NCBI GenBank assembly: GCA_004297215.1
Contig: SCUM01000001.1
Span: 353,181-417,180, forward strand
DNA length: 64,000 nucleotides
Reading direction: 5' to 3'
Source: Patescibacteria group bacterium
GTDB taxonomy: Bacteria > Patescibacteriota > Patescibacteriia > UBA9934 > GWF2-40-263
This document shows positions 587 to 61,622 of this stretch, piece by piece. The notes under the pieces were generated by a model. That model was not told where the DNA came from. It saw nothing but the letters and a program-made list of their open reading frames with translations, and made no database searches. Both the position numbers and the translations under genes were made by a program. The number at the start of each line of letters is the position of its first letter. The stretch's first letter is position 1.

Positions 587-722
587 GAAAACTTGAAATC
601 TTGAAAACTTGAAGGACCAAAGGGGGACGGAAAGGTTGAAGGACGAAGGTTAAAATTTCATTCTTTCTCCATTCGACCTTTCCACGGACCTTTGGTCCTT
701 CAAGATTTGGTTCTTCAAGTTT
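587..722. repeat. Intergenic word-palindrome hairpin element of the ttgaag/ggaccaaagg family (R1)
   Basis: An imperfect inverted repeat of about 136 bp built from the words gaaaacttgaagg and ggaccaaagg and their complements, centred near 655. Copies of the same family occur at 28055-28197, 39228-39375 and 61484-61622. Confidence 0.8.
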
Positions 723-1727
723 TCAACTCGTAAAGATGCTTCTCTTGTACGCCTCCAGATTCTCCAATGCCACCCCAGTCCCCTTAACGACACACTGCTG
801 CGGATCCTCGGCGACGAAGGTGGGGACGCCGGTCGCCTCGGCAAGCAGCGTGTCGAGGTTGCGAAGCTGGCTCGATCCCCCGGAGAGCACGATCCCCTTG
901 TCCATCACGTCGGCGGACAATTCCGGCGGCGTCTTGTGGAGCACCTCCTTCACGGTGGCGATGATCCCCTCGAGCTCGTTCTGGATGGCGGCCGTGACGT
1001 CGTCGCTTGAGATCTGCACGATCTTGGGCAGGCCCGACATCATGTCGCGGCCCTTCACGTCCATGGTGAGGCGCTCGGGCATGTACATGGCCGAGCCGAT
1101 GTTGATCTTGATGTCCTCGGCCGTGCGCTCCCCCACCGCCAGGCCGTACTTGCGGCGGACGTATTCCATGATGGCGGCGTCGAACTTCACCCCGCCGATG
1201 CGCACCGATTCGGACGCCACGATGCCGCCGAGCGAGATGACGGCCATTTCCGACGTGCCTCCGCCGATGTCGATGATCATGTGGCCGCTCGGGCTCCCGA
1301 TCGGGATGTTGGCGCCGATCGCGGCCACGATGGGCTCCTTGATGACGTACGCGGCCTTGGCGCCCGCCGCGATCGCGGCGTCGATCACCGCGCGCCGCTC
1401 AGTGCTCGTGATGCCGCCCGGCACCGCCACCATCACCTCGGGACGGAACAATCGCATGCCGCCCAGCGCCTTGTTGATGAAATAGCGCAGCATCGCCTCG
1501 GTAGTGCGGTAGTCGGCGATGACGCCGTCCTTGAGCGGACGGCGCGCGACGATGGTGTCCGGGGTGCGTCCGAGCATGTCCTTCGCCTCCTTTCCCACCG
1601 CGAGCACCTTGTTGTCGATCGAGGACACCGCGACGACCGAAGGCTCGTGGATGATGATGCCGCGCTTGGGCACGTACACCAGTACCGTGGTGGTGCCAAG
1701 GTCGATCCCGATCTTTTTTGCGAACAT
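723..1727 (-). CDS. mreB: Rod shape-determining protein MreB (actin-like ATPase)
   Basis: MFAKKIGIDLGTTTVLVYV...GIVLSGGSSQLRNLDTLLAEATGVPTFVAEDPQQCVVKGTG. The start was trimmed to MFAKK (ATG at 1725-1727); the upstream ORF-track extension runs into the hairpin repeat. Confidence 0.95.
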   Translation of the reverse strand: MFAKKIGIDLGTTTVLVYVPKRGIIIHEPSVVAVSSIDNKVLAVGKEAKDMLGRTPDTIVARRPLKDGVIADYRTTEAMLRYFINKALGGMRLFRPEVMVAVPGGITSTERRAVIDAAIAAGAKAAYVIKEPIVAAIGANIPIGSPSGHMIIDIGGGTSEMAVISLGGIVASESVRIGGVKFDAAIMEYVRRKYGLAVGERTAEDIKINIGSAMYMPERLTMDVKGRDMMSGLPKIVQISSDDVTAAIQNELEGIIATVKEVLHKTPPELSADVMDKGIVLSGGSSQLRNLDTLLAEATGVPTFVAEDPQQCVVKGTGVALENLEAYKRSIFTS

Positions 1728-1734
1728 AGATAAA

Positions 1735-1800
1735 GGCGTGAAGGCCTCAGGCGTTGAAGGCCTCAAGGCCTTGTCCGCCTGCGGGCCTACAAAGCCACTT
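1735..1800. repeat. Word-palindrome hairpin of the aaggcctcaggc family (R2) between mreB and the DUF4012-like gene
   Basis: ggcgtgaaggcctcaggcgttgaaggcctcaaggccttgtccgcctgcgggcct, an imperfect palindrome. It is related to 3794-3866 and to a split copy inside the CDS at 24627-24736. Confidence 0.7.
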
Positions 1801-3793
1801 CAAACACCCGGTCCTTATCCAAAACGGTCTCCAGCTCGTATACGTCATTTCCCCACTTGTCGCGGCCCTCCGGGACCGACGCGCTCGTGACGTTCTTATC
1901 AAAATCAAGGCGCAACGTCAAACCTCCCTCCTGCGCTCCGGCCTGCTTGAAGACCTTCAGGCGATAGGAGCCTGAGGCGATGGATTCGACCACCGACGGC
2001 GCGAGGAGATACTCGAAGACGAGGTCGCGCGAAGTCCCCGGTTCGATCGACGTGAACGCGCCGAACACCGTGAAGCCGAGCTCTTGCCCGACGTCGGCCC
2101 CTCCCGCGGCGCCGGAGGGCTCATGCAGGCGGTCGTCCTTGAGCGCGCCGGTGACGCGGATGAACTCGCTCCCCGCCGGCACGTACACGCGGGCGTAGGT
2201 GCGGTAGCGCGTGGTCTTCCAATCGAAGCGTCCCTCGTGGTCGTAATGGATGGTGACGCGACCCACGTATTGTCCGGAAGAATTCTTGAACGTCTCGTAT
2301 CGGAGCGTGCGCTTGACGGCCGGGTCGGTCTTGAGGCTCGCGAGGTTCGCGTCCACCGCCATGAGCGCGTCGCCCCAGGCCGGAGACGCGACGCGCCCGC
2401 CCCAACCCACGGCGTCGATCACCCGCTGCGACGACGGATCCTCGCTGTAGAGGAGGAGGGATTTCGCGACGAGCGCGCGCTCGGCCGCCTGCGCGATCTC
2501 GCCCCAACGCGACACGGGCATCGCCTCGAGCCGCGCCTTCATCCGTTCCACGAGCTCGGCGACGATCTCCTTGCGCTGGGCGAGCGGGATGCCCTGCCCC
2601 GCGTAGCCGACCTCCACCTGGTACTCCAGCTTGTCGTAGACGTTCTCCGAGGAGAAGGTCTGCCCGCCCGCCTCGATGGGGCCGGTAAGCCGCAACAGGT
2701 CGGCGGCGAACGCGGGGGTGAAGCCGATCACGCCGTCAAACGCCGTCGGGGTGCCGCCACCAAGCTCCTGTTCGGATCGGAACAGGCGCAACGCGTCGCG
2801 CGAGGACGCGGCGAAGTCCGGCGACCAGTTAGCGTCGCGGAAGAACCATTTCTGCGCGCCCAGCCAGCGGCGCAGCGGTTCGGGCGGCACCTGCGTGACC
2901 CGCGCCTCGGCCGGGCCGTCGAGCGCGTACGCGTCGTGGGTGTAGAGCGCCGCGATGTCGGCATCCTTCACCGTCAGCGCGCCGTAGGTCCCGATGAACC
3001 CGCCGCCCGGACGCAGCTCCGCGTCGTTCAAGAACAGGAGCAGCGACGTCTTTGACCCGTCGATGCCGGCGAACGCCGGGAGGACGCGCGCGGCACGTGA
3101 GAGCAGGCGCAGCGTTTCCTCCGCCTGCGCCAGCTTCCCTGCAAGCGGTACCAGCGCGGCGAACGTGCCGGAGGCGACTCCCTCGCGGTCGGCTTGCGCG
3201 AGCTCGGCGCGCGCGATCGCGATGCGCTCCGCGGTCTCATCGAGCTCGTCCGCGGACGCGACGAGTCGGCGCAGGAGCAGGCGCTTGGTGGCCGACGGCA
3301 GGTCTCCCAGGCTCGTGCCCGGCGAAGCGCCTTCCGAAAGGGCCTGGAGGTCGGCGGCGGAAAGCCCCGAGAGGCGCGCGAGGTCGGCGCCGAGGGTGGC
3401 CGCGATCTTGAGCGCCTCCACGGCGGAGCGGCCCGCGGCGGCGAGCGCGGAGGCCGCCCGAGCCTGCGGAGCGACCCACGGCAGGAACTCGAGCGGCAGG
3501 AGGGCGGCGGCGTTGCGGTCGGCGCGGGCGAACCGCTCGTCGGCGCGCTCGAGCTCGAAGAGCGCCGTGTCGAAATCCAGCGATTCCGCCGCGTCACGGG
3601 CGGCCTCGAGCGCGGCGCGGCCGTCGGAGGCGGCGGCGTACAGGGCGCCGAGCGCGACCGCGAGCCAGATGGCGTACCCGACGAGGACGGTCGCGACGAG
3701 CGTCGCGGCGATCACAAGGCCCCGCTTGATGCCGTGACGGCGATGAACGGGAGCGGGTTCCGCGCGATGGAGGAAATTAGCGCTGTGGGACAT
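1787..3793 (-). CDS. Membrane-anchored DUF4012-like envelope protein
   Basis: 668 aa with an N-terminal TM helix (LVIAATLVATVLVGYAIWLAVALGALYAAA) and a long extracytoplasmic region. Length, architecture and clustering with glycosyltransferases match DUF4012 proteins. The family assignment is from memory, not a search. Confidence 0.55.
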   Translation of the reverse strand: MSHSANFLHRAEPAPVHRRHGIKRGLVIAATLVATVLVGYAIWLAVALGALYAAASDGRAALEAARDAAESLDFDTALFELERADERFARADRNAAALLPLEFLPWVAPQARAASALAAAGRSAVEALKIAATLGADLARLSGLSAADLQALSEGASPGTSLGDLPSATKRLLLRRLVASADELDETAERIAIARAELAQADREGVASGTFAALVPLAGKLAQAEETLRLLSRAARVLPAFAGIDGSKTSLLLFLNDAELRPGGGFIGTYGALTVKDADIAALYTHDAYALDGPAEARVTQVPPEPLRRWLGAQKWFFRDANWSPDFAASSRDALRLFRSEQELGGGTPTAFDGVIGFTPAFAADLLRLTGPIEAGGQTFSSENVYDKLEYQVEVGYAGQGIPLAQRKEIVAELVERMKARLEAMPVSRWGEIAQAAERALVAKSLLLYSEDPSSQRVIDAVGWGGRVASPAWGDALMAVDANLASLKTDPAVKRTLRYETFKNSSGQYVGRVTIHYDHEGRFDWKTTRYRTYARVYVPAGSEFIRVTGALKDDRLHEPSGAAGGADVGQELGFTVFGAFTSIEPGTSRDLVFEYLLAPSVVESIASGSYRLKVFKQAGAQEGGLTLRLDFDKNVTSASVPEGRDKWGNDVYELETVLDKDRVFEVAL

Positions 3794-3866
3794 GAGAGAA
3801 AGGCGTTAAGGCCTCAGGCGGACAAGGCCCACAGGACCTTTCACGCCTGCGGGCCTGAGGGCCTTA
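3794..3866. repeat. Word-palindrome hairpin of the aaggcctcaggc family (R3); its right arm overlaps the last codons of the GT2 gene
   Basis: gaaaggcgttaaggcctcaggcggacaaggcccacaggacctttcacgcctgcgggcctgagggccttaagg. The right arm encodes the C-terminal residues ...LRPSGPQA of the GT2 gene at 3841-4662. Confidence 0.7.
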
Positions 3867-4662: not shown

Positions 4663-4745
4663 ACGAGGGGCAGATGGCAGTTGGCAGATGGTAGTCGGGG
4701 TCTTATGGCCCCCTAACTGCTAACTGCCCACTGCCAACTGCATTA
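4663..4745. repeat. Word-palindrome hairpin of the gcagatggcag/ctgccaactgc family (R4)
   Basis: ggggcagatggcagttggcagatggtagtcgggg / ccccctaactgctaactgcccactgccaactgc, an imperfect palindrome that exactly fills the spacer between the two GT2 genes. Confidence 0.75.
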
Positions 4746-5797: not shown

Positions 5798-5868
5798 CGG
5801 TAGGATGAAGGATGTAGACTGTAGGATGAAGGATGAAAAATATCCTACATCCTACATTCTTCATCCTA
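5798..5868. repeat. Word-palindrome hairpin of the gtaggatgaagg family (R5)
   Basis: gtaggatgaaggatgtagactgtaggatgaaggatg aaaaata tcctacatcctacattcttcatcctac. Confidence 0.75.
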
Positions 5869-5873
5869 CATAT

Positions 5874-7373: not shown

Positions 7374-7412
7374 CCTAACAAAAAACCGCCCTTGAGTCTA
7401 GGGCGGTCTTCG
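7374..7412 (-). terminator. Rho-independent terminator downstream of the 7420-8310 gene
   Basis: The minus strand reads ggcgaagaccgccctagactcaagggcggttttttt: a 7-bp GC stem followed by a U-run. Confidence 0.6.
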
Positions 7413-7419: not shown

Positions 7420-8310
7420 CTACTCTATTTCCTTCCATTCCTTCTCACGCTCCTTCATGCTTTTTTCCAACTTCTTACGGACATCCTGAATCGTCATCGG
7501 CGTATGCGCCTGCTTCCCCCGATAATCGACCCAGAGTTCCCCATTGCCGACATCGAGGTGCGAGCTTTCGACAAAATCCCTATACGTTCCACCAAGCTCA
7601 TTGATGCTCTCGACGTTTATAGACTTACCCATTGCCATAAGCGTCAGCCAGTCACTGAAATAATTGTGACTCACGGAAACTAGGTGGGTAGGTCTGTCCG
7701 GAAAGTGTTTTTTTGAAAGCTGATCCATGCGTTCAACATAATCCACAGCTAGGAAAGCGTATTCTTCCGGCGTTTGGATGAATTCGGCTGGATTAATCGT
7801 CGAAGGATCTATGTCTGGATGTGTACGTCTAAGTTCCTCCTTGAGCGCGGGGATTTCTTCCTTCCTTGCGGTCCAAATCTTTCCTACGATGGACTCATCT
7901 TTGTAGAGGCTGCGCCATTTTTGAAAAGCTGAGTCAGCCAGATCCTCCTTCCTGAGACTGTATCCGAGCATGGTTTGCGGAGCCGTCTCCGTGATGAGAA
8001 GTTTCTTGTCAGTTCTGGTTTTAGCTTCATCAATTTTCTCAGCATCCTTCACGGATACAGCTTCGAAGTCGCCATCTTGTGAAACCAGGTCGAGTAAACT
8101 TGATTCCAAGGTCCGCTTTGTATCAATTGCACGGCCGATGTTTGAAGAAAAAAGCACAATGACAGCAGGAGCAGGAATCTCCTTTAGACGTTCGTAAAGC
8201 TCATGCGCCTTTTTCTTGGCCTGTTCAATCCCCTGTTCGGATAATCCTTCCCCCTTCTTGTGTCCGTGACGCATGATCTCGAACTGTGTGCCCGACCGTC
8301 GTTCCGTCAT
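7420..8310 (-). CDS. Histidine phosphatase superfamily protein (phosphoglycerate-mutase-like branch), paralog 1
   Basis: The N-terminus FEIMRHGHKKGEGLSEQGIEQAKK matches the RHG catalytic motif plus the LTEKGREQA-type segment, and a second His motif is present (LVSVSHNYFSDWL). The start was set to MTERR (ATG at 8308-8310), which forms an ATGA overlap with the stop of the 8307-9521 gene. It lies in the lower-GC island. Confidence 0.6.
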   Translation of the reverse strand: MTERRSGTQFEIMRHGHKKGEGLSEQGIEQAKKKAHELYERLKEIPAPAVIVLFSSNIGRAIDTKRTLESSLLDLVSQDGDFEAVSVKDAEKIDEAKTRTDKKLLITETAPQTMLGYSLRKEDLADSAFQKWRSLYKDESIVGKIWTARKEEIPALKEELRRTHPDIDPSTINPAEFIQTPEEYAFLAVDYVERMDQLSKKHFPDRPTHLVSVSHNYFSDWLTLMAMGKSINVESINELGGTYRDFVESSHLDVGNGELWVDYRGKQAHTPMTIQDVRKKLEKSMKEREKEWKEIE

Positions 8311-9521
8311 AGATGAGAGGTATATTTGGCAGCCCGTTTTAAGACCGTAATCTTGCCGTTGGTGGCATCGAGCTCGATCAGGTCCCCATCGCGGATGATA
8401 TCCGTCGCGTGATGGGTGGCTACGAGACACGGTACGCCAAGTTCACGAGACATGATGGCGGCATGCGAATTCAATCCGCCCTGGTTCGCGATGATTCCAC
8501 CGGCCTTTTTCATGAGCGGAACGAACTCGGGCGAAGTCGTCTCCGTGACCAGGATGGTTCCCTGCGGCATTTCCATCAGGTGTACGCTCTTTACGAAATC
8601 CTCATAACTCTTCCCGTATTCCGGCAAGATGACACGGGCGCGCGCTGTCACTTTTCCACGGTTCGCGATCGTCCCGCCGCATTCCGTCATGTTCGAATAA
8701 TCAGGTTCTGCGAAACGCCCGAGAACTAATTTCTTGTCGATACCATCCAATTCGTACCCGCGTCCGTTCTCGGAATAAATCAGGTACGAATGCTGACGTG
8801 CCCTGATGATGGTATCAGGCGCCAGAGTACCTTGTTCTAACAGGCGAATGAGCTGCTTAATGCTGTAAAATTTCACGTCTTCCACGTTCGTCCCATGTTG
8901 TGCGGCGGCCAAATCCGCATAATGGTAGAGGCAGGTGGTGAGCAATTCGACAAGTAAAGGGCGGCTCTTCATCTTGAGGTCGTCACCCAAGACCAACATG
9001 TTTTTCTCCAACAAGGCGTCGGTATTTTCGAAACAGCCATCTGTGAAGAAAAATTCGGTCTTTTCAAAGTAGTAATACAGCTTCTGGACAATCGCCTTGA
9101 GGTCGCAGACGTCATTGATGGTAACGACGGTCTTTTGACGGGACGTCTTGAGATAGGATTCGCTTTCAGCGATGACTTCTCGGAATCCTTTCTCAAAACG
9201 AACAAAATTTTCCTCTTGTGAAAAGATAGCCCGGCCGATCTTCATGGTCTCCGCCGCGATGGAACGTGGGATGTACGAGCGCAACAGGTCATTTTCATAC
9301 ATCCACAAGAAGCCCCGGTCGAAGTAATGCTGCGCGGAAAAATCTATAAGAAGATAACCCAACCCCTTGAAGTTAAAGGCACGGATATAGTCTTTCGGCG
9401 TAATTTTCTCCAATTGATACATAGGCATGATCATTAGCATGTAGCCTATCAAAAACATCGACACGAGGCTAGATTTTCCCTGAAAAATTAAGATGGGTTC
9501 TGTAACTACTGCAAAAACCAT
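8307..9521 (-). CDS. PEP-utilizing-enzyme mobile (phosphohistidine swivel) domain protein with a novel N-terminal region, paralog A
   Basis: The C-terminus GGIIANQGGLNSHAAIMSRELGVPCLVATHHATDIIRDGDLIELDATNGKITVLKRA is the PEP-utilizers His domain (GGxxSHAAIxAREL). The roughly 300-aa N-terminal region has no domain I can recognise. GC is about 48%. Confidence 0.7.
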   Translation of the reverse strand: MVFAVVTEPILIFQGKSSLVSMFLIGYMLMIMPMYQLEKITPKDYIRAFNFKGLGYLLIDFSAQHYFDRGFLWMYENDLLRSYIPRSIAAETMKIGRAIFSQEENFVRFEKGFREVIAESESYLKTSRQKTVVTINDVCDLKAIVQKLYYYFEKTEFFFTDGCFENTDALLEKNMLVLGDDLKMKSRPLLVELLTTCLYHYADLAAAQHGTNVEDVKFYSIKQLIRLLEQGTLAPDTIIRARQHSYLIYSENGRGYELDGIDKKLVLGRFAEPDYSNMTECGGTIANRGKVTARARVILPEYGKSYEDFVKSVHLMEMPQGTILVTETTSPEFVPLMKKAGGIIANQGGLNSHAAIMSRELGVPCLVATHHATDIIRDGDLIELDATNGKITVLKRAAKYTSHL

Positions 9522-9722
9522 TTTTTCAAGGGTTTTCGGTTGACAAGGGCGTTAATTTCTGCTATCTTTCAACGTTGTTCGTTCCATCCAATCTACTGTT
9601 GAAAGCGGTATTTTGCAGCCGAAGTTCGGCGTCAAATAGCCGTTTTCAACAAAAGGAAAATCGTGGATCAATGGTTTGTTCCAAGATGTACCTACGGCAT
9701 ACGTGAAAGGCAGGGTAGTTAA

Positions 9723-10499
9723 GTGACCGACACGTCAAAACTCGAGACCAGCAAGCCGGCCTCTGACCTCATCCATGGCCTCTTCACCCCTCTCGCGCGC
9801 AAGCTCGAGATGGTGAGGAACTATCCCGGGGTGACCCAGGAGATGATCGCGGAGGCGCTCGATGAGGCGAATGTCTCTGGACTCCTCGGCCGCTACGAAG
9901 CCGAGAGCCCAGAATATCCGCGGCTCGACGTGGTCGTTACGGTGTACAGGGAGAGCGTCCTGGCAACGTTCCTGTACGCGCGCGATCGGATGCGCGAAGC
10001 CTTCGGTGAAGGATTCTCCCAGTGGGAACATGCCTATGGAGAGGGTGTGGATGAAAACCGCATCCGACTCCTCGAAGGCGTCCCAGATCATCGCAACTGT
10101 GTTCGTATCGAGGTGCTAGACCTCCGCGATTGTTGTGAACCCCAAAAGCGCACTCTGCCCGAAAGAGATGGGTATATGCCTAGCGCGTTCCGTGTGCCGA
10201 GATCGGCCACCTTCGCACCCATCTACGCCGGGGCTCAAAGCCCGAGGTGGGTACGTCAGATGAGCACCGCCGACGACGACGTTCCTTGGGTTATTTGTGG
10301 TGGAATTGAGCTCAATGATCCTTGCCTCGATAAACTGTGGGGAGCCTTGCCGGGTGTCAGGCTCTTTGAGGGGAAAGCTGAACTCTTCGCCATGAAGTGT
10401 GACTGCTGGGTCTATCCCAACTGTGCCATGCCTTCCCTCTGGACACGAGAAACCGTGGGGACCCATCACAGGTATCAGTTTATCTATGGGAAAGGTTGA
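9723..10499 (+). CDS. Hypothetical protein (orphan, island-associated)
   Basis: A 258-aa ORF with GC3-biased codon usage and no motif I recognise. It is followed by a terminator hairpin. Confidence 0.45.
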   Translation: MTDTSKLETSKPASDLIHGLFTPLARKLEMVRNYPGVTQEMIAEALDEANVSGLLGRYEAESPEYPRLDVVVTVYRESVLATFLYARDRMREAFGEGFSQWEHAYGEGVDENRIRLLEGVPDHRNCVRIEVLDLRDCCEPQKRTLPERDGYMPSAFRVPRSATFAPIYAGAQSPRWVRQMSTADDDVPWVICGGIELNDPCLDKLWGALPGVRLFEGKAELFAMKCDCWVYPNCAMPSLWTRETVGTHHRYQFIYGKG

Positions 10500-10585
10500 T
10501 CTCTTCACCTACGAATGTGACCGCTGTCTCTATGACGGCCACGCTTTGCCTCCCCTCCGGGAGTGAGCGTTGGCACAGGGATGCT

Positions 10586-10639
10586 CGGAACTCGAAATCC
10601 TCGGTCTTCGGACCTTAGATCTCAGTTCCGGGCTTTTTT
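10586..10639 (+). terminator. Rho-independent terminator after the 9723-10499 gene
   Basis: cggaactc...gagttccg stem enclosing an inner hairpin, followed by ggcttttttac. Confidence 0.55.
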
Positions 10640-10645
10640 ACATAC

Positions 10646-10921
10646 TCAAAGATATATTTCGCGCCGATGTCCGATCTTTACGATCTCGATGCGTTTCGCT
10701 GATGCGTTCACGATGCCGATGAGACGGTAATCCCCGACCCGGAACCTGACGTCACCCGCGGCCGGCTCGCGCAGGCGCTTCGCGAACGCGGACGGATTCG
10801 ACTGTTTCCCGAGCCAGACGAGCTTGTGCACGATGCGGCGCGCGACGGCGTGGTCGAGACTCCGCAGGTCCTTCTCGGCCTGCGTGGTCAGGACCAGCTT
10901 AAATGCCATAGGCCTTGGCAA
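10646..10921 (-). CDS. RelE/ParE family type II toxin
   Basis: A 91-aa basic protein ...RFRVGDYRLIGIVNASAKRIEIVKIGHRREIY with the RelE/ParE fold signature. It overlaps the upstream antitoxin by 23 nt. Confidence 0.7.
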   Translation of the reverse strand: MPRPMAFKLVLTTQAEKDLRSLDHAVARRIVHKLVWLGKQSNPSAFAKRLREPAAGDVRFRVGDYRLIGIVNASAKRIEIVKIGHRREIYL

Positions 10922-11177
10922 GATCGGCGATGGAAACGATCTCTCCCTTCTTCAATCCTTGTCGCGCCTTCTTCACGCGTGCTCGCAACGTGCGGCTCGA
11001 CGCGGCTTCCAGGTCTTCGAGCAGCTCGTCCATCTCCGCACTGGAGAAGAAGAATCCGAGCGTGGTGCTCCCGCGCATCACGCGCGTGACGTCCCGAAGG
11101 GTCTTGGAAGGATTCTTCTGGACATCGCGGATCGAGGCGACGTGTTCCTTTGCCAACAGCTGGTAGACCTTTGCCAT
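10899..11177 (-). CDS. Type II antitoxin (Phd/YefM-like) partnered with the RelE/ParE toxin
   Basis: A 92-aa acidic protein (…ELLEDLEAASS…) immediately upstream of the toxin and overlapping it, the classic antitoxin-toxin operon arrangement. Confidence 0.5.
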   Translation of the reverse strand: MAKVYQLLAKEHVASIRDVQKNPSKTLRDVTRVMRGSTTLGFFFSSAEMDELLEDLEAASSRTLRARVKKARQGLKKGEIVSIADLAKAYGI

Positions 11178-11226
11178 ATCGTATGTAGATTATTACATAC
11201 TTTATATCGCGGCGCAGAACCGTCCG

Positions 11227-12243
11227 TCAAGCCCGTTTCAAGATCCTCACGACCCCCTTCTCCGCGTCCACTTCCACCTCATCGCCATCTTTCAGAACTT
11301 TCGTCGCGACCTTGGTGCCGATGATGCACGGCTTCTTGAGTTCACGCGATACGATGGCGGCGTGGCAGGTGATGCCGCCCTCATCGGTGACGAACGCGGC
11401 GGCACGGCGCATCGCTGGAAGGAAATCCGGGGTGGTCATCGTGGAAACGAGGATTTCCCCTTCTTGGACGGATGCTACTTGCTCACGCTTCTTCAAGACA
11501 CGGACCCTGCCGCTCACCTTCCCTTTCTGCGCGATCTGCCCTTTGAGCTCCCCGGCCATTTGCGCTTCCTTCGCAGGGTCGACCAAGACGATATCCGTAT
11601 GATCCTGCACGTACTCATGGAGGGAAATGGCCCCTTGCGGAATACCGTCGACGAACAGGTACTTCTCGCGCCGAGCGCGAAGGGTCGCCGGGTCGATACC
11701 AGCTGCAAGGTCTGCCATGGTGACGTACCAGGTGAGATCCTCGTTCCCCGGCAGCAAGGCCGCCAGCGTCTTTTGGATATAAATTTCAGCGTCCACGAAA
11801 AACGTGTCGCGGGCGCGCAACTCCAACGCCAGGTCACGAGCGGATTGGAGCGAATCCTCGCTGGTAATCACGTAAAACAGCGCGAGCCAATTTGCGAGAG
11901 CGACGCGCGTCTTTTGCAGCGTACCCTTGAATCCCGCGACGGTCGTCTCGGGTATTGCCCAAATCGACATCAGTTCGGACAATTGCCCTTGATACTCGGC
12001 GACCTTCGAGCGCACGAGTTCCAGGTCTTGTCCGTACGCGCGCCCCGCATTCGCGACGATCCAGGTATTCGCCTCCTTGCGTACCCAGATTTCAATGATG
12101 CCATCCGCGCAATCGATGAGCAGCGCCGGGCGCGGAACGGCCGTGTCCCCGAACTTCTCCGGGACATCCACCAAGAAAGTCTGCATCCAGACTTCCTGCA
12201 CGATTAAGGTTGATTGACGGCTATACAGCTTCTCGAAGGTCAT
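11227..12243 (-). CDS. PEP-synthase/rifampin-phosphotransferase-like protein with linker/central and phosphohistidine swivel domains but no ATP-grasp domain, paralog B
   Basis: MTFEKLYSRQ...GRVRVLKKREQVASVQEGEILVSTMTTPDFLPAMRRAAAFVTDEGGITCHAAIVSRELKKPCIIGTKVATKVLKDGDEVEVDAEKGVVRILKRA. The start was set to the ATG at 12241-12243, 32 nt downstream of the ATP-grasp gene stop. Confidence 0.7.
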   Translation of the reverse strand: MTFEKLYSRQSTLIVQEVWMQTFLVDVPEKFGDTAVPRPALLIDCADGIIEIWVRKEANTWIVANAGRAYGQDLELVRSKVAEYQGQLSELMSIWAIPETTVAGFKGTLQKTRVALANWLALFYVITSEDSLQSARDLALELRARDTFFVDAEIYIQKTLAALLPGNEDLTWYVTMADLAAGIDPATLRARREKYLFVDGIPQGAISLHEYVQDHTDIVLVDPAKEAQMAGELKGQIAQKGKVSGRVRVLKKREQVASVQEGEILVSTMTTPDFLPAMRRAAAFVTDEGGITCHAAIVSRELKKPCIIGTKVATKVLKDGDEVEVDAEKGVVRILKRA

Positions 12244-12275
12244 AATTCTACGTCCCTTCAGGCACGCTTCAATCC

Positions 12276-13223
12276 TCACGACCCGCTTAGCGTCGTGATC
12301 GGCCGGCTTTGGACGATGTAAAACGTCCCGCCCTCCATGGCCCATTCGATGTCGCACGGGAAACCGTAATGTGCCTCGATGCGCTGGCAGATTCCGCCGA
12401 TGTCGCGGATCTGATCGGGAGAGATCTTTTGCGCGTTTTTCTTTTCCGCTGGCACGGGGATCTTCTCATTCCCGCCGGTCGAGCGCACCATCATGAGTTC
12501 CTGCTCGGACACGTTCACGTCGATGAGCGACTTGTCGGTCTTGTCGACGACGTACGAATCCGGCGTCACCTGCCCGCCCACGATCATCTCCCCCAGGCCC
12601 CAAGCCGCCTCGATGATCATCTGGTTGCGGTCCTCCGTCACGGGGTGGACCGTGAAGGTGATGCCGGACACCTCGGACTGCACCATCTTCTGCACCACGA
12701 CGGCCACCGACACGTGCGTGTCCACCATCCCCTTTTCGTTGCGGTACACGATGGCGCGTGGGGTGAACAATGATGCCCAGCAGCGCTTCACGTTCACGAG
12801 CAGCGTCTCGTGCGTCGTGTTGAGGTAGCTCTCCAGCTCCCCGGCCCAGCTGGCGACGGAAGAGTCTTCGGCTGTGGCGGACGAACGGACCGCGACGAAC
12901 TCGGCACCGAGCGCGGCGAACGACGCCTCGATTTCTTTCCCGAGGTCCTCGGGAAACTTCGCGTCATGAATGAGGTCATGCAGCACGCGCGACGCACGGT
13001 CTACGGAAGCCACGTCCTCGTAGTTCACCTTGGCGAGCTGCGCCTTCACTTCCTGGGTCAGGTCCGTCTCCTCAAGAAACCGATCGAACGATTCCGCGAC
13101 GACGACAAATCCCGGCGGCACCGGGATGCCGGCTTTCGTCATCTCCCCAAGCGACGCCCCCTTGCCTCCCGCTTCGCCGACATTTTCCTTTCCGAGCTGT
13201 TCGAACGGTTTCACGAAAGGCAT
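12276..13223 (-). CDS. Stand-alone PPDK_N-type ATP-grasp nucleotide-binding domain protein (PEP synthase / pyruvate phosphate dikinase N-terminal domain)
   Basis: MPFVKPFEQLGKENVGEAGGKGASLGEMTKAGIPVPPGFVV...AVRSSATAEDSSVASWAGELESY...DIEWAMEGGTFYIVQSRPITTL. It ends where full-length PEP synthases continue into the central/His domains. Confidence 0.8.
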   Translation of the reverse strand: MPFVKPFEQLGKENVGEAGGKGASLGEMTKAGIPVPPGFVVVAESFDRFLEETDLTQEVKAQLAKVNYEDVASVDRASRVLHDLIHDAKFPEDLGKEIEASFAALGAEFVAVRSSATAEDSSVASWAGELESYLNTTHETLLVNVKRCWASLFTPRAIVYRNEKGMVDTHVSVAVVVQKMVQSEVSGITFTVHPVTEDRNQMIIEAAWGLGEMIVGGQVTPDSYVVDKTDKSLIDVNVSEQELMMVRSTGGNEKIPVPAEKKNAQKISPDQIRDIGGICQRIEAHYGFPCDIEWAMEGGTFYIVQSRPITTLSGS

Positions 13224-13227
13224 ATGA

Positions 13228-14670
13228 TCAGGCTCGTTTCAAGATTGTCACGATTCCCTTCTCCGCGTCCACCTCTACCTCATCGCCGTCCTTGAGCACC
13301 TTGGTCGCGATCTTCGTGCCGATGATGCAGGGTATTTTCAACTCCCGCGATAAGATTGCCGCATGGCAGGTGATGCCGCCTTCGTTGGTGACGATAGCGA
13401 CGCACTTACGGAGAAACTGCATGAAATCCGGCGAGGTCATGGAGATTGCCAGGACGAACGGCTCATCGGGTACTGCCTCCTTCGGATGCGCAACGACCCG
13501 CACGATTCCCCTTGCCTTCCCCCTGAACGCGACCTGTCCACGCACTTGATCATGTTTTCCCTCATCGGTTCTAACAGCATCGAAAATTTTTTTTGCGTTT
13601 TCACCGACCACGTAACTGCCCTTTTTCCCGTTTTCCCAATACACGAGCAAGCCACCGTCTCGCCTTGCACCAAGCAGGTCCTTGTACGTCTTGTCCTGCA
13701 GTTTCGCCAGCGTCAGTTCGCCAGCATACGAATATTTCAACGCGTCGTGGCTGACATCAAATTTTTCCGCCAACCCGCCTAGCGCCCAGTCGATTAACGC
13801 GAACAGCCGCTGTTCGTAAGCCATGCGCTCGTCGCGGTTGTACTGACAATACCCAAAGAGCGAGAAAATGTTCCGTTCCTGCGTGTTTGCGCCGAGCTTT
13901 TTCAAGATGGCCTGTTTGGCCTTCGCCAATACCTTCTGTTCCTTCGGGTTGAATTTCTGTGCAGCTTCGGCATCCCTCAGCACGTCCTCAGCCGAGTACT
14001 CGACGTACCCGTTGAAATTCGACTTGGCATACGCGAACGCGCGTGCCAACCGCTCGGCGGCCTTCCTTTTGTTGACGGCCCGGCGTATTTTTTTCGAAAT
14101 AACGATTTGCCGTTTTACCGTTTCGGAAATTTCCGAACTATGGAAAAGGGTTGAAAAATGTGCCTGCCGTTGATCCAGCGGGACACGCTTCTGCTCCAAC
14201 CACCAGTTCGTCCAGTCGGTCGCCATGTCCCCGATCATGGCTGCCAATGGCGAAACCGCCCAAATGTCTTCCAACACCCGCTGGCACTCGTGAACCAATT
14301 CGACCAATTGCTCTCCAGACAGCATGGAGAAGGCTTTGCCGCCGTATCGATGCCACAAGCGATCGGATTGCGCTTTGACCTTGTCCCAACGCCGAAGATA
14401 CATTCTGAAGTTTTTTCCCGACAAGAAATAATCCAGTACGGAATATCCGAACATGCGGACGTTCAGTTTGATGAAGGATGTCTCTCCCTGGTATAGCCAA
14501 TATCCATCCGCGAACAGGAGGGAAAAGCGGTAGTAACGCTCGATGTGCTGATCGGCCCATACCTTCATGTAAGGATCCAGAAACGCTGGCGTCCCCGGCC
14601 TCTGAGCGACGAGCCATGTCTTGGATTCGGGCAAAGGCGGATGCGGATAGGAAAATCGTACGGGATTCAT
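13228..14670 (-). CDS. PEP-synthase/rifampin-phosphotransferase-like protein with a roughly 390-aa central domain and a phosphohistidine swivel domain but no ATP-grasp domain, paralog C
   Basis: C-terminus ...VRGQVAFRGKARGIVRVVAHPKEAVPDEPFVLAISMTSPDFMQFLRKCVAIVTNEGGITCHAAILSRELKIPCIIGTKIATKVLKDGDEVEVDAEKGIVTILKRA. Its 3-prime roughly 170 nt are about 80% identical at DNA level to the 3-prime end of 11227-12243. Confidence 0.7.
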   Translation of the reverse strand: MNPVRFSYPHPPLPESKTWLVAQRPGTPAFLDPYMKVWADQHIERYYRFSLLFADGYWLYQGETSFIKLNVRMFGYSVLDYFLSGKNFRMYLRRWDKVKAQSDRLWHRYGGKAFSMLSGEQLVELVHECQRVLEDIWAVSPLAAMIGDMATDWTNWWLEQKRVPLDQRQAHFSTLFHSSEISETVKRQIVISKKIRRAVNKRKAAERLARAFAYAKSNFNGYVEYSAEDVLRDAEAAQKFNPKEQKVLAKAKQAILKKLGANTQERNIFSLFGYCQYNRDERMAYEQRLFALIDWALGGLAEKFDVSHDALKYSYAGELTLAKLQDKTYKDLLGARRDGGLLVYWENGKKGSYVVGENAKKIFDAVRTDEGKHDQVRGQVAFRGKARGIVRVVAHPKEAVPDEPFVLAISMTSPDFMQFLRKCVAIVTNEGGITCHAAILSRELKIPCIIGTKIATKVLKDGDEVEVDAEKGIVTILKRA

Positions 14671-20213: not shown

Positions 20214-20246
20214 AACGAAAAACCGCCCTGCAGGGGGCGGTTCTCG
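20214..20246 (-). terminator. Rho-independent terminator downstream of rplL
   Basis: The minus strand reads cgagaaccgccccctgcagggcggtttttcgtttg. Confidence 0.6.
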
Positions 20247-20277: not shown

Positions 20278-20311
20278 GACTTTGAAGTAACAGGATTGTT
20301 ACTTCAAAGTC
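20278..20311. repeat. Perfect 15-bp-stem palindrome that includes the rplL stop codon
   Basis: gactttgaagtaaca ggat tgttacttcaaagtc. The left arm mirrors the last four rplL codons (VTLK) plus the TAA stop, and it carries the ttgaag word. Confidence 0.7.
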
Positions 20312-20697: not shown

Positions 20698-20774
20698 GAT
20701 AGGGGGTAGGTAGTAGGGGGTAGGGGGTAGTATGGAGGATTTTTGTCCTACCACCTACCAACTACCACCTACGC
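20698..20774. repeat. Word-palindrome hairpin of the gtagg family (R6) in the rplJ-rplL spacer
   Basis: gggggtaggtagtagggggtagggggtagtatggagga ttttt gtcctaccacctaccaactaccacctacgc. Confidence 0.75.
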
Positions 20775-20781
20775 ACTTTAG

Positions 20782-22716: not shown

Positions 22717-22838
22717 AGTTTGTTGGTACTGCGTGTTGGTGCGCTGCGGCGCGTTTGGGCCTGATGGCGTCGGCGACGAACGCAGCCGCAGGCTGCACCG
22801 ACGACCCGTCAGGGCCACTCACGCCGAAGGCGCTGACA

Positions 22839-39156: not shown

Positions 39157-39227
39157 GGGACACCTCTTTGTTTGGTTGCCAGTCTGGCTTGCCGACCCTA
39201 CGACAAAAACGGACCCGTGTCAATGGA

Positions 39228-46609: not shown

Positions 46610-46612
46610 ATG

Positions 46613-46706
46613 AAAGGGTTGTAAGGGTTTAAAGGGTTGTAAAGGTGTTGGAATTCTTTTTTGTAAAAAGGCTCCTTCACCTTTATCACTTTTACAACCT
46701 TTTCCA
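46613..46706. repeat. Word-palindrome hairpin of the ggttgtaaagg family (R12) in the pgk-eno spacer
   Basis: gggttgtaagggtttaaagggttgtaaaggtg...cacctttatcacttttacaacctttt. Confidence 0.75.
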
Positions 46707-46708
46707 CC

Positions 46709-50173: not shown

Positions 50174-50251
50174 AATGGGAGTTGGTATTTGGGAGTTGGG
50201 AGTGGGTAGGAACGGAACGGGGGGAATTGTACCATCCGGCGACAGCAAACG

Positions 50252-50278
50252 AAAATCGGCCCCGGAGGGCCGATTTTC
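50252..50278 (-). terminator. Rho-independent terminator downstream of tsf
   Basis: The minus strand reads gaaaatcggccctccggggccgattttcgtttg. Confidence 0.6.
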
Positions 50279-50871: not shown

Positions 50872-50955
50872 TGATAGTGCGTAGTGCGTAGTTGGTAGTA
50901 CGTAGGGCGAGACCTGTTGCCTACGCACTACCCCCTACCGACTACGCACTTCCTC
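50872..50955. repeat. Word-palindrome hairpin of the gcgtag/gtagg family (R13) in the rpsB-tsf spacer
   Basis: gtgatagtgcgtagtgcgtagttggtagtacgtagggc gagacctgtt gcctacgcactaccccctaccgactacgcac. Confidence 0.75.
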
Positions 50956-51868: not shown

Positions 51869-52114
51869 TTAGAGATACTGCTTGATCTGATTCCAGGTGA
51901 TGCCTGATGTCGTCTCGAGTTCCTTCAATATATAGTACAAGACATCCTTCCGAAGATCCGCGATAACAGTCACGGACTTCTGCGTGGCCGGCCAGGTCAC
52001 TTTCACGTGATCGCCCTTGCCGCCGACGGCATTGGCCTCGAAACCGAGACGTCGGAGCGCGTTCAGGAATTTCTTTCGTGAGAGATCTCCTGGCAGCTCG
52101 CTACGCGAAGGCAT
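51869..52114 (-). CDS. hicA: HicA-family toxin (YcfA-like mRNA interferase)
   Basis: MPSRSELPGDLSRKKFLNALRRLGFEANAVGGKGDHVKVTWPATQKSVTVIADLRKDVLYYILKEL fits the dsRBD-like HicA pattern (...GSHxxxxxP.). Confidence 0.6.
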   Translation of the reverse strand: MPSRSELPGDLSRKKFLNALRRLGFEANAVGGKGDHVKVTWPATQKSVTVIADLRKDVLYYILKELETTSGITWNQIKQYL

Positions 52115-52433
52115 ATTCCTTCTCGCCCACACGGTGGACGCCTGCCTCCTTCGCGTACGAAGACGGCACCTCGAAGGCGGTGAGGATGGCATCCTTCACC
52201 TTCTCATCAAGCTCGTCTGCCCGATCGGCATGCGTGATGATGCTCCCGTACCGAAAATCTTCGCTGATGGCGACGACCGAACCGTCTTCCTGCTTCTCGT
52301 GTCGGAAATTGATGCGCCCGTAAAGACGGAAGTAATGGTTCAATTCAACCAATCCGCGCGGAGCGACCCCGCTTCCGAGGACGAATTTCACGAGGTGGTC
52401 TTTTGCCTGCTTATAGATGCCCATATTGCTCAA
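52101..52433 (-). CDS. hicB: HicB-family antitoxin-like protein (UPF0150/RNase-H-like fold)
   Basis: 110 aa, acidic (...HEKQEDGSVVAISEDFRYGSIITHADRADELDEKVKDAILTAFE...), overlapping the downstream hicA-like ORF by 14 nt. Confidence 0.5.
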   Translation of the reverse strand: MSNMGIYKQAKDHLVKFVLGSGVAPRGLVELNHYFRLYGRINFRHEKQEDGSVVAISEDFRYGSIITHADRADELDEKVKDAILTAFEVPSSYAKEAGVHRVGEKEYAFA

Positions 52434-55885: not shown

Positions 55886-55899
55886 AAAGCGAAAGGAGT

Positions 55900-56900
55900 G
55901 CGTAAGAAAGAGGGTTATCCACAGAAATGTGGGTAACGCCCCTTGACGCGTCGTTTAGGGAACGATAAGCTGCTTCTCACGTTGATGAGGCAGAAACGAA
56001 CCGACGACGTCCGTCAGGACGACCGAACGGGCGAAAAGCCTACGCAGCGTGCAAAGTGAGATGACGTCGCTCGAATCGAATGAAGGCCCCGCGAGGGAGA
56101 CCGACAGGAGAAAAGAGCGAGGATCAGGAATCTTCTGAATCATTGATGGGAATCTCTGGTGGTCCTCCGTGACTTACTGGAACCCTCCCATCAGTGCCAT
56201 CAGCCTCCCCGCCGTGAAACAGCGGAATAACCTGGCGCATGTGCATGCGTCTGGTCCAGGAGGAGCGCCGGCTCATCGAGTCGGAACCGGTCCCATTCCG
56301 GAAGGTGGAAAGCAGAAGAAGGTTTGCGGGGTAGCTGGGGAGGAGAAAGACCTCCATGCGAGCCGCAATTCAAGTCGTCGGACATGGAAGCCCGCAATTG
56401 CGCGGTTTCACCTAGAGGACGCTAATAACGTCCGCATAGGTCGCGAATGTCGGAGGGTCGCAAGACCCTAGGGATCAAGAGGCGATTCATCGCTACTTCC
56501 CTTCACTGATGACGCTCGGTGCAGCGATCCTGCACGACAAGTCATGTTTGACACCCTGCCATGGATCGCAAGATCACCAACATGGCTAGGTCCGAACGTC
56601 TTTGAACATGCCGATCCGGAGCCGAACGAGAGTAACATCTCCAGTAGGAAGGTGAGGTGGCTGGTGCTCTCGGGTGCCAGGAAAGACGTCGGGAACGTTC
56701 CCGATCGATATCGAACCGGCGCGTCAGGCATCTGGCGCGTGACATTCGACACGGTGGGTCCCGTTGGGATGTAGGAAGTAGGAAGAGCGCGTGCGCTCGG
56801 ACGAAACTACGTCTCGCGGGCCACCCGTGAAGGATTGCGAGTTGGTCAACTCCAGCGAGCACCTGAGGCCCTAGCGAAAGCGAAGGCCTCTTGAATTTTC
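55900..56900 (+). ncRNA. ORF-free lower-GC insert of about 1 kb between prfA and prmC, ending in a hairpin plus U-tract; candidate large structured RNA or ORF-less inserted element
   Basis: No ORF longer than 106 aa on either strand, and GC is about 10 points below the flanks. The 3-prime end has gaggcc...ggcctc followed by ttgaattttcatttcc, consistent with a + strand transcript. The 8-nt direct repeat agcgaaag occurs at both ends (55888-55895 and 56873-56880). Confidence 0.3.
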
Positions 56901-59772: not shown

Positions 59773-59852
59773 AGGGTGGTTCCTGGACGGGAAAAGCCCC
59801 GTCGAATGGGCCAAGTATGCAAAAACGGCTGTGATTTGTCAATGCCGAAGCG

Positions 59853-59919
59853 CGTAATGCGTAGGTGGCAGGTGGTAGGACAAAAAATCCTACGCACTAC
59901 GTACTACCCCCTACGTACT
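59853..59919. repeat. Word-palindrome hairpin of the gtagg family (R14)
   Basis: gcgtaatgcgtaggtggcaggtggtagga caaaaaa tcctacgcactacgtactaccccctacgtac. Confidence 0.75.
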
Positions 59920-59921
59920 CA

Positions 59922-60332: not shown

Positions 60333-60362
60333 ACGATAACACGGGCAAGGAAGAAAGGAAGG

Positions 60363-61469
60363 TTAGGCCCCGTCGCGGCGGGAATGTACCGCGACGCTCT
60401 GCGCCACCCCGAGCATGAGCAGGGTGAACAAGAGCGAGCTCCCGCCGTAGCTTACGAGCGGCAGGGTGACGCCGGTCACGGGCATGAGGCCCAGGTTCGC
60501 CCCGACGTTCACGGTGAGCTGCACGAGGATCATGGCGCCGAACCCGATGAGCAAGTGGCTGGTGAAGTCGTCCCGGCTCGCGGCGGCGAGCTGGAGCAGG
60601 CGGACGAACAGGACGGCGAACGCGGACAGGACGATGACGACCCCGAAGAACCCGAGCTCCTCGGCGATGACCGCGAAGATGAAGTCGGTCTGGGACTCCG
60701 GGAGGAACTTGAGCTGGCTCTGCGACCCGAACCCCAATCCGCTGCCGAACAGGCCGCCGCTGCCGACCGCGATGATGGCCTGCGCGACGTTGTATCCTTC
60801 CCCGAGCGGGTCCAAGGACGGGTCGATGAACGAGAGGATGCGCGCTTTCTGATACGGGGCGAGCAACCCCTGCCAGGCCACGACCCCTACGAGCGCCGCG
60901 ATCGCGAGGATGGGGACGAGGTGGCGCGCTCGCATGCCGGCGAACAGGCAGACGGCACCCCAAAGCCCCATGAGCAGGAGCGCCGAGCCGAGGTCGGGCT
61001 GGAGCATCACGAGGACGGCCGGCACGGCGGCGATCAGCCCGCTTTCCACCAGCTCGCGCACCGCGAACCGGGGGCGCGCACGGGAAGAGAAATACGCGGC
61101 GAGCGCCACCGCGAGCGCGAACTTCATGTACTCGACCGGCTGGAAGCGGAACGTCCCGAGGTCGAACCATCCGGTCGTGCCGCGCACGTCCTCGCCAAAG
61201 AGCAGCACGGCCCCGAGCATGAGGACGCCCGCGGCGTACGCGACGACGCTCCAGTTGCGCAACAGCCGGTAATTGCCGCGCGCGGCGAACAGGAACGCCG
61301 CGAGACCGACGCCCGCGGCCAGCAGCTGTTTCTTCACGTTCAGGAAATCCGACTCGGGACGGGACAGGGCCACGGAATAGATGGCGGCGAGGCCGAAGGC
61401 GAGCAACGCGAACACCGCGAAGGCGAGCGGCCAGTCCATGCGTCGCAGGCGGGCGAGGTCGAGGAGCAT
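60363..61469 (-). CDS. SEDS-family peptidoglycan glycosyltransferase (FtsW/RodA)
   Basis: Ten TM helices and ...VMLQPDLGSALLL..., ...NVAQAIIAVGSGGLFGSGLGFGSQSQLKFLPESQTDFIFAVIAEELGF..., ...LPLVSYGGSSLL.... The start was trimmed to MLLDLARL; the upstream extension is the translated repeat. Confidence 0.85.
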   Translation of the reverse strand: MLLDLARLRRMDWPLAFAVFALLAFGLAAIYSVALSRPESDFLNVKKQLLAAGVGLAAFLFAARGNYRLLRNWSVVAYAAGVLMLGAVLLFGEDVRGTTGWFDLGTFRFQPVEYMKFALAVALAAYFSSRARPRFAVRELVESGLIAAVPAVLVMLQPDLGSALLLMGLWGAVCLFAGMRARHLVPILAIAALVGVVAWQGLLAPYQKARILSFIDPSLDPLGEGYNVAQAIIAVGSGGLFGSGLGFGSQSQLKFLPESQTDFIFAVIAEELGFFGVVIVLSAFAVLFVRLLQLAAASRDDFTSHLLIGFGAMILVQLTVNVGANLGLMPVTGVTLPLVSYGGSSLLFTLLMLGVAQSVAVHSRRDGA

Positions 61470-61483
61470 GGGGGGAGGGTAGA

Positions 61484-61622
61484 CGAAAACTTGAAACATG
61501 AAAACTTGAAGGACCAAAGACCCATGAAAAGGTCGATGGATAAAAGGATGAAATTTCAAACTTCATCCTTCAACCTTTCCGTCACCCATTGGTCCTTCAA
61601 GTTTTGGTTCTTCAAGTTTTTT
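61484..61622. repeat. Word-palindrome hairpin of the ttgaag/ggaccaaag family (R11), close copy of R1
   Basis: gaaaacttgaaacatgaaaacttgaaggaccaaagaccc...gtcacccattggtccttcaagttttggttcttcaagtttttt. Confidence 0.8.

Follow-up and report, generated by a model that had tools for sequence, protein, structure and literature searches.

The window analysed here, a 64-kb stretch of an 842-kb metagenome-assembled genome (MAG) of Patescibacteria whose nearest named relatives are Candidatus Uhrbacteria, carries 13 long palindromic elements (E1 to E13), 12 of which are intergenic and which together make up 2% of its sequence. Our best explanation, which we hold with a probability of about 0.6, is that they are related families of selfish palindromes resembling repetitive extragenic palindromes (REPs), REP doublets forming hairpins (REPINs) and miniature inverted-repeat transposable elements (MITEs), that they occupy gene boundaries of one Candidatus Uhrbacteria sub-lineage, and that they are tolerated there by looping out of the mRNA. 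A preliminary description of the window had named a REP- or MITE-like nature among several candidate roles, and this option is now supported by orthologous junctions that are empty in relatives, by copies of ~140 nt that occur in either orientation, and by insertions into a coding sequence (CDS) and a protein C-terminus.

Long hairpins built of tandem 7-8 nt words

Exact protein look-ups place the window on an 842,311-bp contig encoding TAK03876-TAK03927. Genes were called from the order of GC content at the three codon positions (GC3>GC1>GC2) together with Pfam, and Pfam annotation gave 63 junctions in the window, 54 of them co-directional. Elements occupy 12 of the 63 junctions, corresponding to about 12 of the 33 spacers of at least 40 nt; the loci listed in the preliminary description are present where it had placed them, but its wording that almost every spacer is occupied was too strong. 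Each of the 13 long elements folds into a single long hairpin on both strands, and RNAfold z-scores against 100 dinucleotide shuffles confirmed the folding for both strands of 12 elements (z -3.6 to -11), with E12 as the weakest hairpin (z about -2). A GC-corrected sliding-window fold of the whole window returned 19 outlier clusters, the strongest of which are elements; ten long elements and the region of a small hairpin, E6m, which is counted apart from the 13, are among these clusters, and E2, E9 and E12 lie outside them. An inverted-repeat finder likewise ranks the element loci at the top of the window. Opposing arms are distinguished by small indels, and an ungapped hairpin scan thus misses most of the elements.

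The arms consist of 7-8 nt words in short tandem arrays, e.g., GTAGNNN, TTGAAGGA/CCAAAGG, AAGGCCTCAGGC or GGCAGAT, and the hairpins are built of helices of 5-6 bp with small internal loops between them. For nearly all elements Tandem Repeats Finder reported periods of 7-9 in the two arms, and autocorrelation put the best period at 7 or 14 for 23 of 40 arms and at 8, 15 or 16 for another 14, which bears out the tandem-word structure proposed earlier. A heptad pattern (GTAGNNNGTAGNNNGTAG, at most one mismatch) matched 23 times, with 0.02 matches expected. The elements are also AT-richer than the genes, as had been noted, with a mean GC content of 49% (range 37-63%) compared to 63% for the window.

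An assembly artefact could be rejected, because two Logan contigs from an independent assembly of SRR8426588 are 100% identical to the MAG across E2, E6 and E6m. For an assembler the elements nevertheless act as repeats, since one Logan contig (1.2 kb, mreB) ends 28 nt into E1. A tRNA or other known RNA was rejected as well, as ARAGORN and Rfam gave none at the element loci: Rfam yielded no match at gathering thresholds, and at E<=1 only sub-threshold matches to miRNA-precursor models and one snoRNA model. Coding mini-ORFs were rejected in turn, on account of a period not divisible by three and of 5' arms that several frames find closed by stops. Scanning a genome collection with the 14-mer TTGAAGGACCAAAG, a query that is too short for this purpose, returned only chance matches in unrelated taxa, and a 21-base family pattern gave two chance matches in metagenomes, one at 66% GC that looks eukaryotic and an unrelated one at 46% GC.

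Filled and empty junctions in related genomes

For comparison we used sequences from relatives, namely L122, L129, L130, L131, L134, L138, L139 and L140. L129 (76% protein identity to the window, 69% GC) and L139 belong to one sister organism, L130 shows 75% identity, L134 comes from a relative with an RpsB identity of at least 90%, and L122 (44% GC) from a distant one. The operon GT495-GT349-GT27x-DUF4012-mreB-GT4 is syntenic in relatives and the protein termini beside the inserts are conserved, whereas the junctions differ: they overlap (ATGA) or measure 1-3 nt in L129, overlap or measure 1-18 nt in L122, and span 47-142 nt in the window.

E1 (584-722; TTGAAG/GGACCAAAGG family) fills the 142-nt mreB/GT4 spacer, with the mreB stop TGA lying within its first word, and folds with a free energy of about -58 to -64 kcal/mol (z -7.6 to -8.9); in L129 the two genes are 1 nt apart. 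E2 (1729-1800; AAGGCCTCAGGC family), whose stem includes the 59-nt DUF4012/mreB spacer and the stop codon (GTAG), stands where L129 and L131 have 3 nt. At the site of E3 (3794-3866; same family), between GT273 and DUF4012, the genes of relatives overlap by 17 or 11 nt. Here the insertion displaced the end of GT273, whose final residues and stop are now read from the 5' arm of E3 (mRNA sense): the protein ends in ...LRPSGPQA* in the window and in ...HVPQR* in relatives. E4 (4663-4745), a GGCAGAT/GGCAGTT heptamer hairpin, exactly fills the 83-nt GT349/GT273 spacer, which is 1 nt in L129 and L122 and holds an unrelated element in L130. E5 (5798-5871; GTAGGAT/GAAGGAT heptamers, z -8 to -10) lies in the 78-nt GT495/GT349 spacer, where the genes overlap (ATGA) in L129. 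In the NCBI annotation a protein reads through E5: it has 372 aa compared to 349 aa in homologues, begins MKNVGCRIFFILHPTVYILHPTAMTPRV and carries a false extension of 23 aa (MKNVGCRIFFILHPTVYILHPT), so the spurious N-terminal extension suspected in the preliminary description is real. L130 itself has elements at three junctions of the operon, two of them using the unrelated vocabulary AAGCATCAAA/GACAAAT and the third being a GTAG heptad hairpin where the window holds a AAGGCCTCAGGC element.

The same holds outside this operon. E11 (50872-50955; GTAGNNN heptads) is found in the rpsB/tsf spacer, which measures 93 nt in the window and 10 nt (GGGGGAAATT) without an element in L134. The cyclophilin/DUF4015 spacer, which contains E8 (28055-28197; AAGGACC/CAAAGG words, TTGAAG superfamily), is 163 nt in the window and 25 nt in L138. 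A 122-nt spacer separates xseA and xseB, compared to 1 nt in L131 and L138; it holds a candidate, E14 (22757-22816), which we count apart, a GC-rich hairpin with z-scores of -2.2 and -3.4 and without word structure, which had been missed in the preliminary description. The rplJ/rplL spacer, 87 nt in the window with E6 (20698-20779; GTAGNNN heptads), is 85-91 nt in three other lineages and 23 nt, without an element, in L139; hairpins that can be aligned with E6 are present in L131 and L138, and the one in L140 is built of different words. The words of this L140 hairpin (3283-3373) are GGGACTG/CCCCAGT, the latter being the heptamer of STRR1, one of the cyanobacterial short tandemly repeated repetitive (STRR) sequences.

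E7 (24626-24736; AAGGCCTCAGGC family) is the copy inside a gene that had been described before, and it is indeed in frame, adding 37 codons to the linker region of a C39-like peptidase that is encoded on the minus strand at 24049-24888. In the L131 orthologue this linker position is taken by another long hairpin. That hairpin (L131, 9-104) is GC-rich with a perfect stem (GGAGACGGGTGACGACGAGGGAGGTCC...), also in frame and unrelated in sequence to E7.

No element was found in 18 kb of the L129/L139 organism, a stretch with six junctions at which the window or L130 does have one. The presence of elements thus varies by lineage; because orthologous junctions overlap or are short in relatives, the elements are insertions, and because the sister organism does without them, they are dispensable. 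A repeat of another kind was seen in L138, where a 136-nt spacer (3100-3235) contains a perfect inverted repeat of 20 bp (cccagtactacaatgtcgac / gtcgacattgtagtactggg) around ~95 nt, unlike the word hairpins.

Dispersed copies and arrays without an inverted partner

Families of 3-4 copies each can be recognised within the window. E1 and E13 (61484-61622; TTGAAG family, 156-nt orf/rodA spacer) are paralogues that align over ~140 nt, including the non-repetitive interior, with ~87% identity over the aligned positions. Their alignment scores 156 with one element flipped and 132 unflipped, so orientation relative to the genes is not fixed. E8 and E9 (39228-39375; TTGAAG family) are more distant members of the E1/E13 family. 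E2, E3 and E7 share a unit of ~32 nt (AGAGGCGTTAAGGCCTCAGGCnnnnAAGGCC), of which E7 is an inverted dimer, and GTAGNNN heptads are common to E6, E11, E12 (59853-59919) and three hairpins of relatives (L130c, L131a, L138a). Two of the elements in L130 are paralogues of one another. Variation between copies is by whole words, and the motif TGAAGG, which links several vocabularies, may point to a single superfamily.

Besides the hairpins, we found two heptamer arrays that lack an inverted partner and that the preliminary description had not listed. One (50176-50203, minus strand) reads in the mRNA as two ACTCCCA words, AATACCA and a further ACTCCCA, is pyrimidine-rich and ends 2 nt before the gap ATG without a Shine-Dalgarno motif; its 24-nt ACTCCCA/AATACCA string (CCAACTCCCAAATACCAACTCCCA) also precedes a different, holin-like gene in L138 (5930-5966). 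The other, a GTAGGGG heptad array (46165-46196, plus strand), lies within the eno CDS on the antisense strand and codes for residues of a variable loop, leaving the length of enolase unchanged.

Such arrays bear on an explanation in which nothing moves: heptamers or octamers would arise in situ through a lineage-specific tendency to slippage at a stop/Shine-Dalgarno junction, and template switching would then invert the array. The words do look like composites of stop codon and Shine-Dalgarno motif (TGAAGG, TAGG, TAAGG), the stop codon of the gene is often part of the first word, and copies differ by whole words, as slippage would have it. The partnerless arrays upstream of gap and in eno, the latter at unchanged enolase length, fit as well, as do the missing target-site duplication and the absence of a transposase from the window, and heptamer arrays beside start codons are known elsewhere, where they are likewise unexplained (PMC4679880). 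We nevertheless consider a purely local origin quite unlikely, because E1 and E13 share ~140 nt with a non-repetitive interior at unrelated loci, a 32-nt unit is common to E2, E3 and E7, and the 24-nt ACTCCCA/AATACCA string stands before different genes in two genomes: sharing of this kind requires copying between loci.

Alternative roles considered: selection on RNA, binding sites and termination

If the hairpins were selected by the host as RNA, they would serve as processing sites for RNase III or another enzyme, as 3' stabilisers, or as coupling devices masking the downstream start, the hairpin itself being functional and its sequence turning over by compensatory change. Their location inside operons for ribosomal, glycolytic and cell-wall proteins, the way the hairpin foot adjoins both stop and start, and a hairpin of ~85-91 nt at rplJ/rplL in four of five related lineages, one of them with another vocabulary, are what such a role would lead one to expect. 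The different hairpin at the same peptidase linker in L131 points the same way, and so does the layout of Shine-Dalgarno motif, hairpin and ATG at E11, which restores a workable spacing. Folding of sense and antisense strands, however, found the mRNA strand more stable in only 7 of 22 hairpins, i.e., no G·U signature and nothing that indicates selection on the sense RNA. In the three rplJ/rplL hairpins that can be aligned (window, L131, L138) the GTAG:CTAC cores are invariant and the three bases between them vary and often mispair; among these orthologues, three sequences only, a compensatory change was seen in 1 of 21 pairs; it is the GTAG words that are conserved and not just the pairing. 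Considering further that the same junctions lack elements in L129/L139, L134 and L122, that copies occur in either orientation, and that insertions have damaged a C-terminus and entered a CDS, we regard host selection of the RNA as doubtful.

The invariant cores separated by three variable bases, together with the strong over-representation of the words and their regular 7-nt phasing, would also suit DNA-level binding sites, in which GTAG or TTGAAG words are recognised by a nucleoid, replication or recombination protein and the hairpin is incidental. This is very improbable in our view: at least six unrelated vocabularies share one architecture, strict inverted symmetry around a central loop is needless for a binding array, the elements are absent from the sister genome, and no candidate binding protein was identified.

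A general role as terminators or as attenuators, the latter named in the preliminary description, is scarcely credible. On the minus strand E8 has a terminator-like inner core, a 12-bp stem with T7 directly after it on the coding strand; TTGAAG-family elements have CAAGTTTT at their end; and E9 and E12 each have a stop codon on one side and a promoter-like site on the other. Yet in a terminator test of the element loci only the E8 core fitted cleanly, with one marginal 5-bp match in E2, and terminator-like sites in total do not exceed the shuffled expectation. Most elements lack a T-run, the E8 core being the exception, and stand 2-22 nt upstream of the starts of operon genes, some of them essential, at junctions whose ancestral state is overlapping genes. 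Ordinary terminators with a GC-rich stem and a T-run are present elsewhere in the window, e.g., at 7384-7412, 20218-20245, 31990-32027 and 50251-50278.

One of these ordinary terminators stands close to E6m (20278-20311, minus strand), a 16-bp hairpin overlapping the rplL stop that had been taken for a miniature copy of the TTGAAG family. It belongs to none of the dispersed families. Three lineages (the window; L130, 160-185; L140, ~3768-3800) have a small hairpin that overlaps the rplL stop or follows it directly, each with a sequence of its own, and in all three it is followed by ATCCTGAG and then by a conventional terminator (20218-20245 in the window).

Polarity and geometry of the junctions

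Polarity was examined in 19 hairpins, 14 from the window and five from relatives. In all 19, purines prevail in the 5' half (0.57-0.80) and pyrimidines in the 3' half, and both strands give the same reading. Given about eight independent vocabularies, such uniformity is unlikely to have arisen by chance (about 0.01 by our own estimate). Because of this polarity, stop codons are concentrated in the 5' arm: in most hairpins the 5' arms contain stops in two to three frames on either strand, in the GTAG family in all three frames on both strands, and the 3' arms are almost free of them. A period not divisible by three helps to spread the stops over the frames.

Each of the 16 junction elements has its hairpin foot 0-9 nt from the upstream stop and 2-22 nt from the downstream start, and in the folded mRNA stop and start are ~10 unpaired nt apart. 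E10 (46612-46708; AAAGGGTTGT words with a period of 9-10), for instance, sits in the 99-nt pgk/eno spacer, its foot leaving 4 nt to the pgk stop on one side and 2 nt to the eno ATG on the other. In E11 the Shine-Dalgarno motif AAGGAGG is located at the 5' foot and the tsf ATG 3-6 nt beyond the 3' foot, and the two come within ~7 nt of each other if the foot pairs enclosing the last bases of the motif melt. The abutment of stop and start noted in the preliminary description does not extend to E9, 3 nt past the DUF2207 stop, and E12, directly after the orf136 stop, which adjoin a stop only and are followed by a promoter-like site, which is TTGACA...TAGGGT for E9 and belongs to L25 for E12. The promoter-like sequences after E9 and E12 (39190-39227 and 59814-59852) resemble each other (CATTGACA ... 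CCGTTTTTG). Words of the E10 arms were also seen as direct AAGGGTT/AAGGGTG repeats in L131 (17090-17135) and L129 (11405-11450), where they closely precede a TTGACA box within a conserved non-coding region.

From this geometry we propose how insertions could be survived. The mRNA hairpin would extrude nearly the whole insert, so that stop and start end up ~10 unpaired nt apart, much as in the ancestral overlap or adjacency; the stops in all three frames of the 5' arm would still terminate the upstream protein; and a ribosome arriving at the upstream stop would melt the hairpin foot and free the start region, so that translational coupling survives. Ribosome-assisted unfolding of an intergenic structure is an established coupling mechanism (PMC4538824), and together with the junction geometry it suggests that tolerance is probably achieved by such a loop-out.

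A more speculative scheme draws on the same features. A lineage-specific process without a classical transposase would write or propagate the 7-8 nt word arrays at stop/start junctions, where they would be co-opted as intercistronic coupling cassettes. The stop-rich purine arm would halt translation of the upstream gene whatever the frame or orientation; the pyrimidine arm, open and lacking a Shine-Dalgarno motif, would be the leader of the next gene; and, with stop and start held close together by the hairpin, translation of the downstream gene would require a terminating ribosome to melt the foot. Such a scheme would account for the uniform polarity, the period that is not a multiple of three, the GTAG:CTAC cores and the retention at rplJ/rplL, and if true it would amount to a bacterial analogue of ribosome shunting. 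We judge it unlikely all the same.

Discussion

Selfish families of REP-, REPIN- or MITE-like palindromes are, in our opinion, the explanation that agrees best with the evidence. Such elements could spread through a hairpin-forming single-stranded intermediate or with the help of a trans-acting REP-associated tyrosine transposase (RAYT) or an enzyme of the IS200/IS605 type, could diversify afterwards by word slippage, and would be retained at sites where they are least harmful. The collateral damage that insertions typically cause is visible in the last codons of GT273 (E3), in the peptidase linker (E7) and in the annotation extension caused by E5.

Several points weigh against this explanation. 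Pfam detected no transposase, RAYT-like gene or insertion sequence in the window, and comparison of filled with empty sites (six junctions, eight insertions) revealed neither a target-site duplication nor a common target sequence. The copies are not near-identical and so give no evidence of recent transposition, and sequence-specific transposases would not readily account for at least six word vocabularies in a genome of less than 1 Mb. The partnerless heptamer arrays, located immediately before starts and within eno, imply that a process generating repeats in situ, or selection on the words, is also at work. The retention at rplJ/rplL and the invariant GTAG:CTAC cores could reflect a host function or a recognition motif instead of junk, and the translational-coupling part of the argument is deduced from junction geometry.

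Should the selfish-element explanation hold, it changes how such genomes are viewed. Patescibacteria genomes are regarded as extremely streamlined, and here ~2% of the window consists of self-folding repeats lodged between genes that formerly overlapped; together with a sister that has none in 18 kb, this implies that even such genomes host active or recently active selfish DNA. The paired filled and empty junctions offer a natural experiment on how coupled genes survive an insertion of 60-160 nt, and polarity combined with 7-8 nt phasing may be a general rule for harmless intergenic insertions, a rule that would link the elements to the unexplained heptamer repeats of cyanobacteria and Beggiatoaceae. 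On the practical side, elements of this kind break short-read assemblies and cause false N-terminal extensions in automated annotation.

Other features of the window

Between prfA and prmC, ~1 kb (55886-56890) with ~57% GC and strong folding contains no convincing ORF and has no Rfam match at E<=1; it could be a large non-coding RNA, an intron-like insert or a decayed gene. A lower-GC island (7420-15443, 50-58%) separates GT495 from an MscS-like gene, two genes that adjoin in relatives, and carries several fragments resembling PEP-utilising enzymes or PPDK together with a histidine-phosphatase-like ORF; it was likely acquired horizontally or rearranged. Upstream of rpsB, a HicA-like toxin ORF and an adjacent small ORF (51869-52433) form a possible toxin-antitoxin pair.

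Comparison with known repeat families

MITEs are defined by terminal inverted repeats around a unique core, a target-site duplication (e.g., TA) and a parent insertion sequence, and bacterial examples that fold as RNA hairpins include Correia/NEMIS, ERIC/IRU, RUP and Nezha. The elements described here resemble them in being 60-160 bp long and non-coding, in their long imperfect inverted symmetry, in lying beside or between genes with which they are co-transcribed, and in varying between genomes, where we found insertion polymorphism among relatives. Unlike MITEs, they show no visible duplication or parent element in the window, and the whole element consists of short tandem words.

Rickettsia palindromic elements (RPEs) are 100-150 bp long, reside mostly within genes, where they can be in frame, and likewise inhabit a reduced genome. 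E7, in frame in a CDS, and E3, which gives a new C-terminus, recall them; however, 12 of our 13 elements are intergenic, and RPEs are not built of heptamer words. Mycobacterial interspersed repetitive units (MIRUs) are direct repeats of 40-100 bp with small coupled ORFs. Like the elements, they are intercistronic in operons and adjoin the flanking stop and start, but unlike them they are not palindromic.

Cyanobacterial STRR sequences represent a further type of heptamer direct-repeat array. TAACTGA heptamer direct repeats, whose origin is unexplained, occur in Beggiatoaceae, Cyanobacteria and Bacteroidetes (PMC4679880). The elements share with TAACTGA and STRR arrays the 7-nt period, forward stops with an open reverse strand, a position near starts without a Shine-Dalgarno motif and the occurrence in ribosomal-protein operons. 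Those arrays, however, repeat one direct word without predicted structure, whereas here inverted arrays of many vocabularies form long hairpins; arrays without self-complementarity were found only in the side arrays at 50176-50203 and 46165-46196, all 13 elements being inverted.

Closest in kind are the GTAG-tagged REPs, whose termini often provide TAG stops, which are in part located inside ORFs, and for which the Y1 transposases RAYT (TnpA-REP) are the proposed mobilisers (PMC3733652). As with GTAG-tagged REPs, REPINs and bacterial interspersed mosaic elements (BIMEs), multiple families of extragenic palindromes share one genome and lie mostly just downstream of ORFs among co-directional genes; the TAG stop derived from GTAG, inverted pairs that give longer hairpins, occasional copies within ORFs and an abundance that varies between relatives are further common traits. 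Many dispersed extragenic copies abutting an upstream stop, and inverted dimers, are thus found here as in REPs, but not the single stem-loop of 20-40 bp with one unpaired GTAG tag that makes up a REP unit. In its place stand tandem word arrays, in which GTAG recurs every 7 nt, four to five times per arm, and is base-paired with CTAC, and other vocabularies do without GTAG altogether. The ~32-nt unit of E2, E3 and E7 comes nearest to a REP unit, yet it has no GTAG tag. Unlike REPs, the elements are AT-richer than their genome, which is that of a bacterium of the Candidate Phyla Radiation (CPR) with less than 1 Mb, and the window contains no RAYT.

The preliminary description had not recognised the sequences as a described repeat family, which agrees with Rfam and with our search for papers, although the GTAG-tagged REP superfamily has been described and is close in kind (PMC3733652). 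Full-text literature searches yielded no account of elements like these in Patescibacteria, CPR or Uhrbacteria, nor a described counterpart for an architecture in which 7-8 nt words form inverted arrays, several vocabularies coexist and polarity is uniform. While we do not regard membership in the REP/MITE class as established, the behaviour of the elements is REP/MITE-like, and a streamlined CPR genome is a new host for elements of this behaviour.

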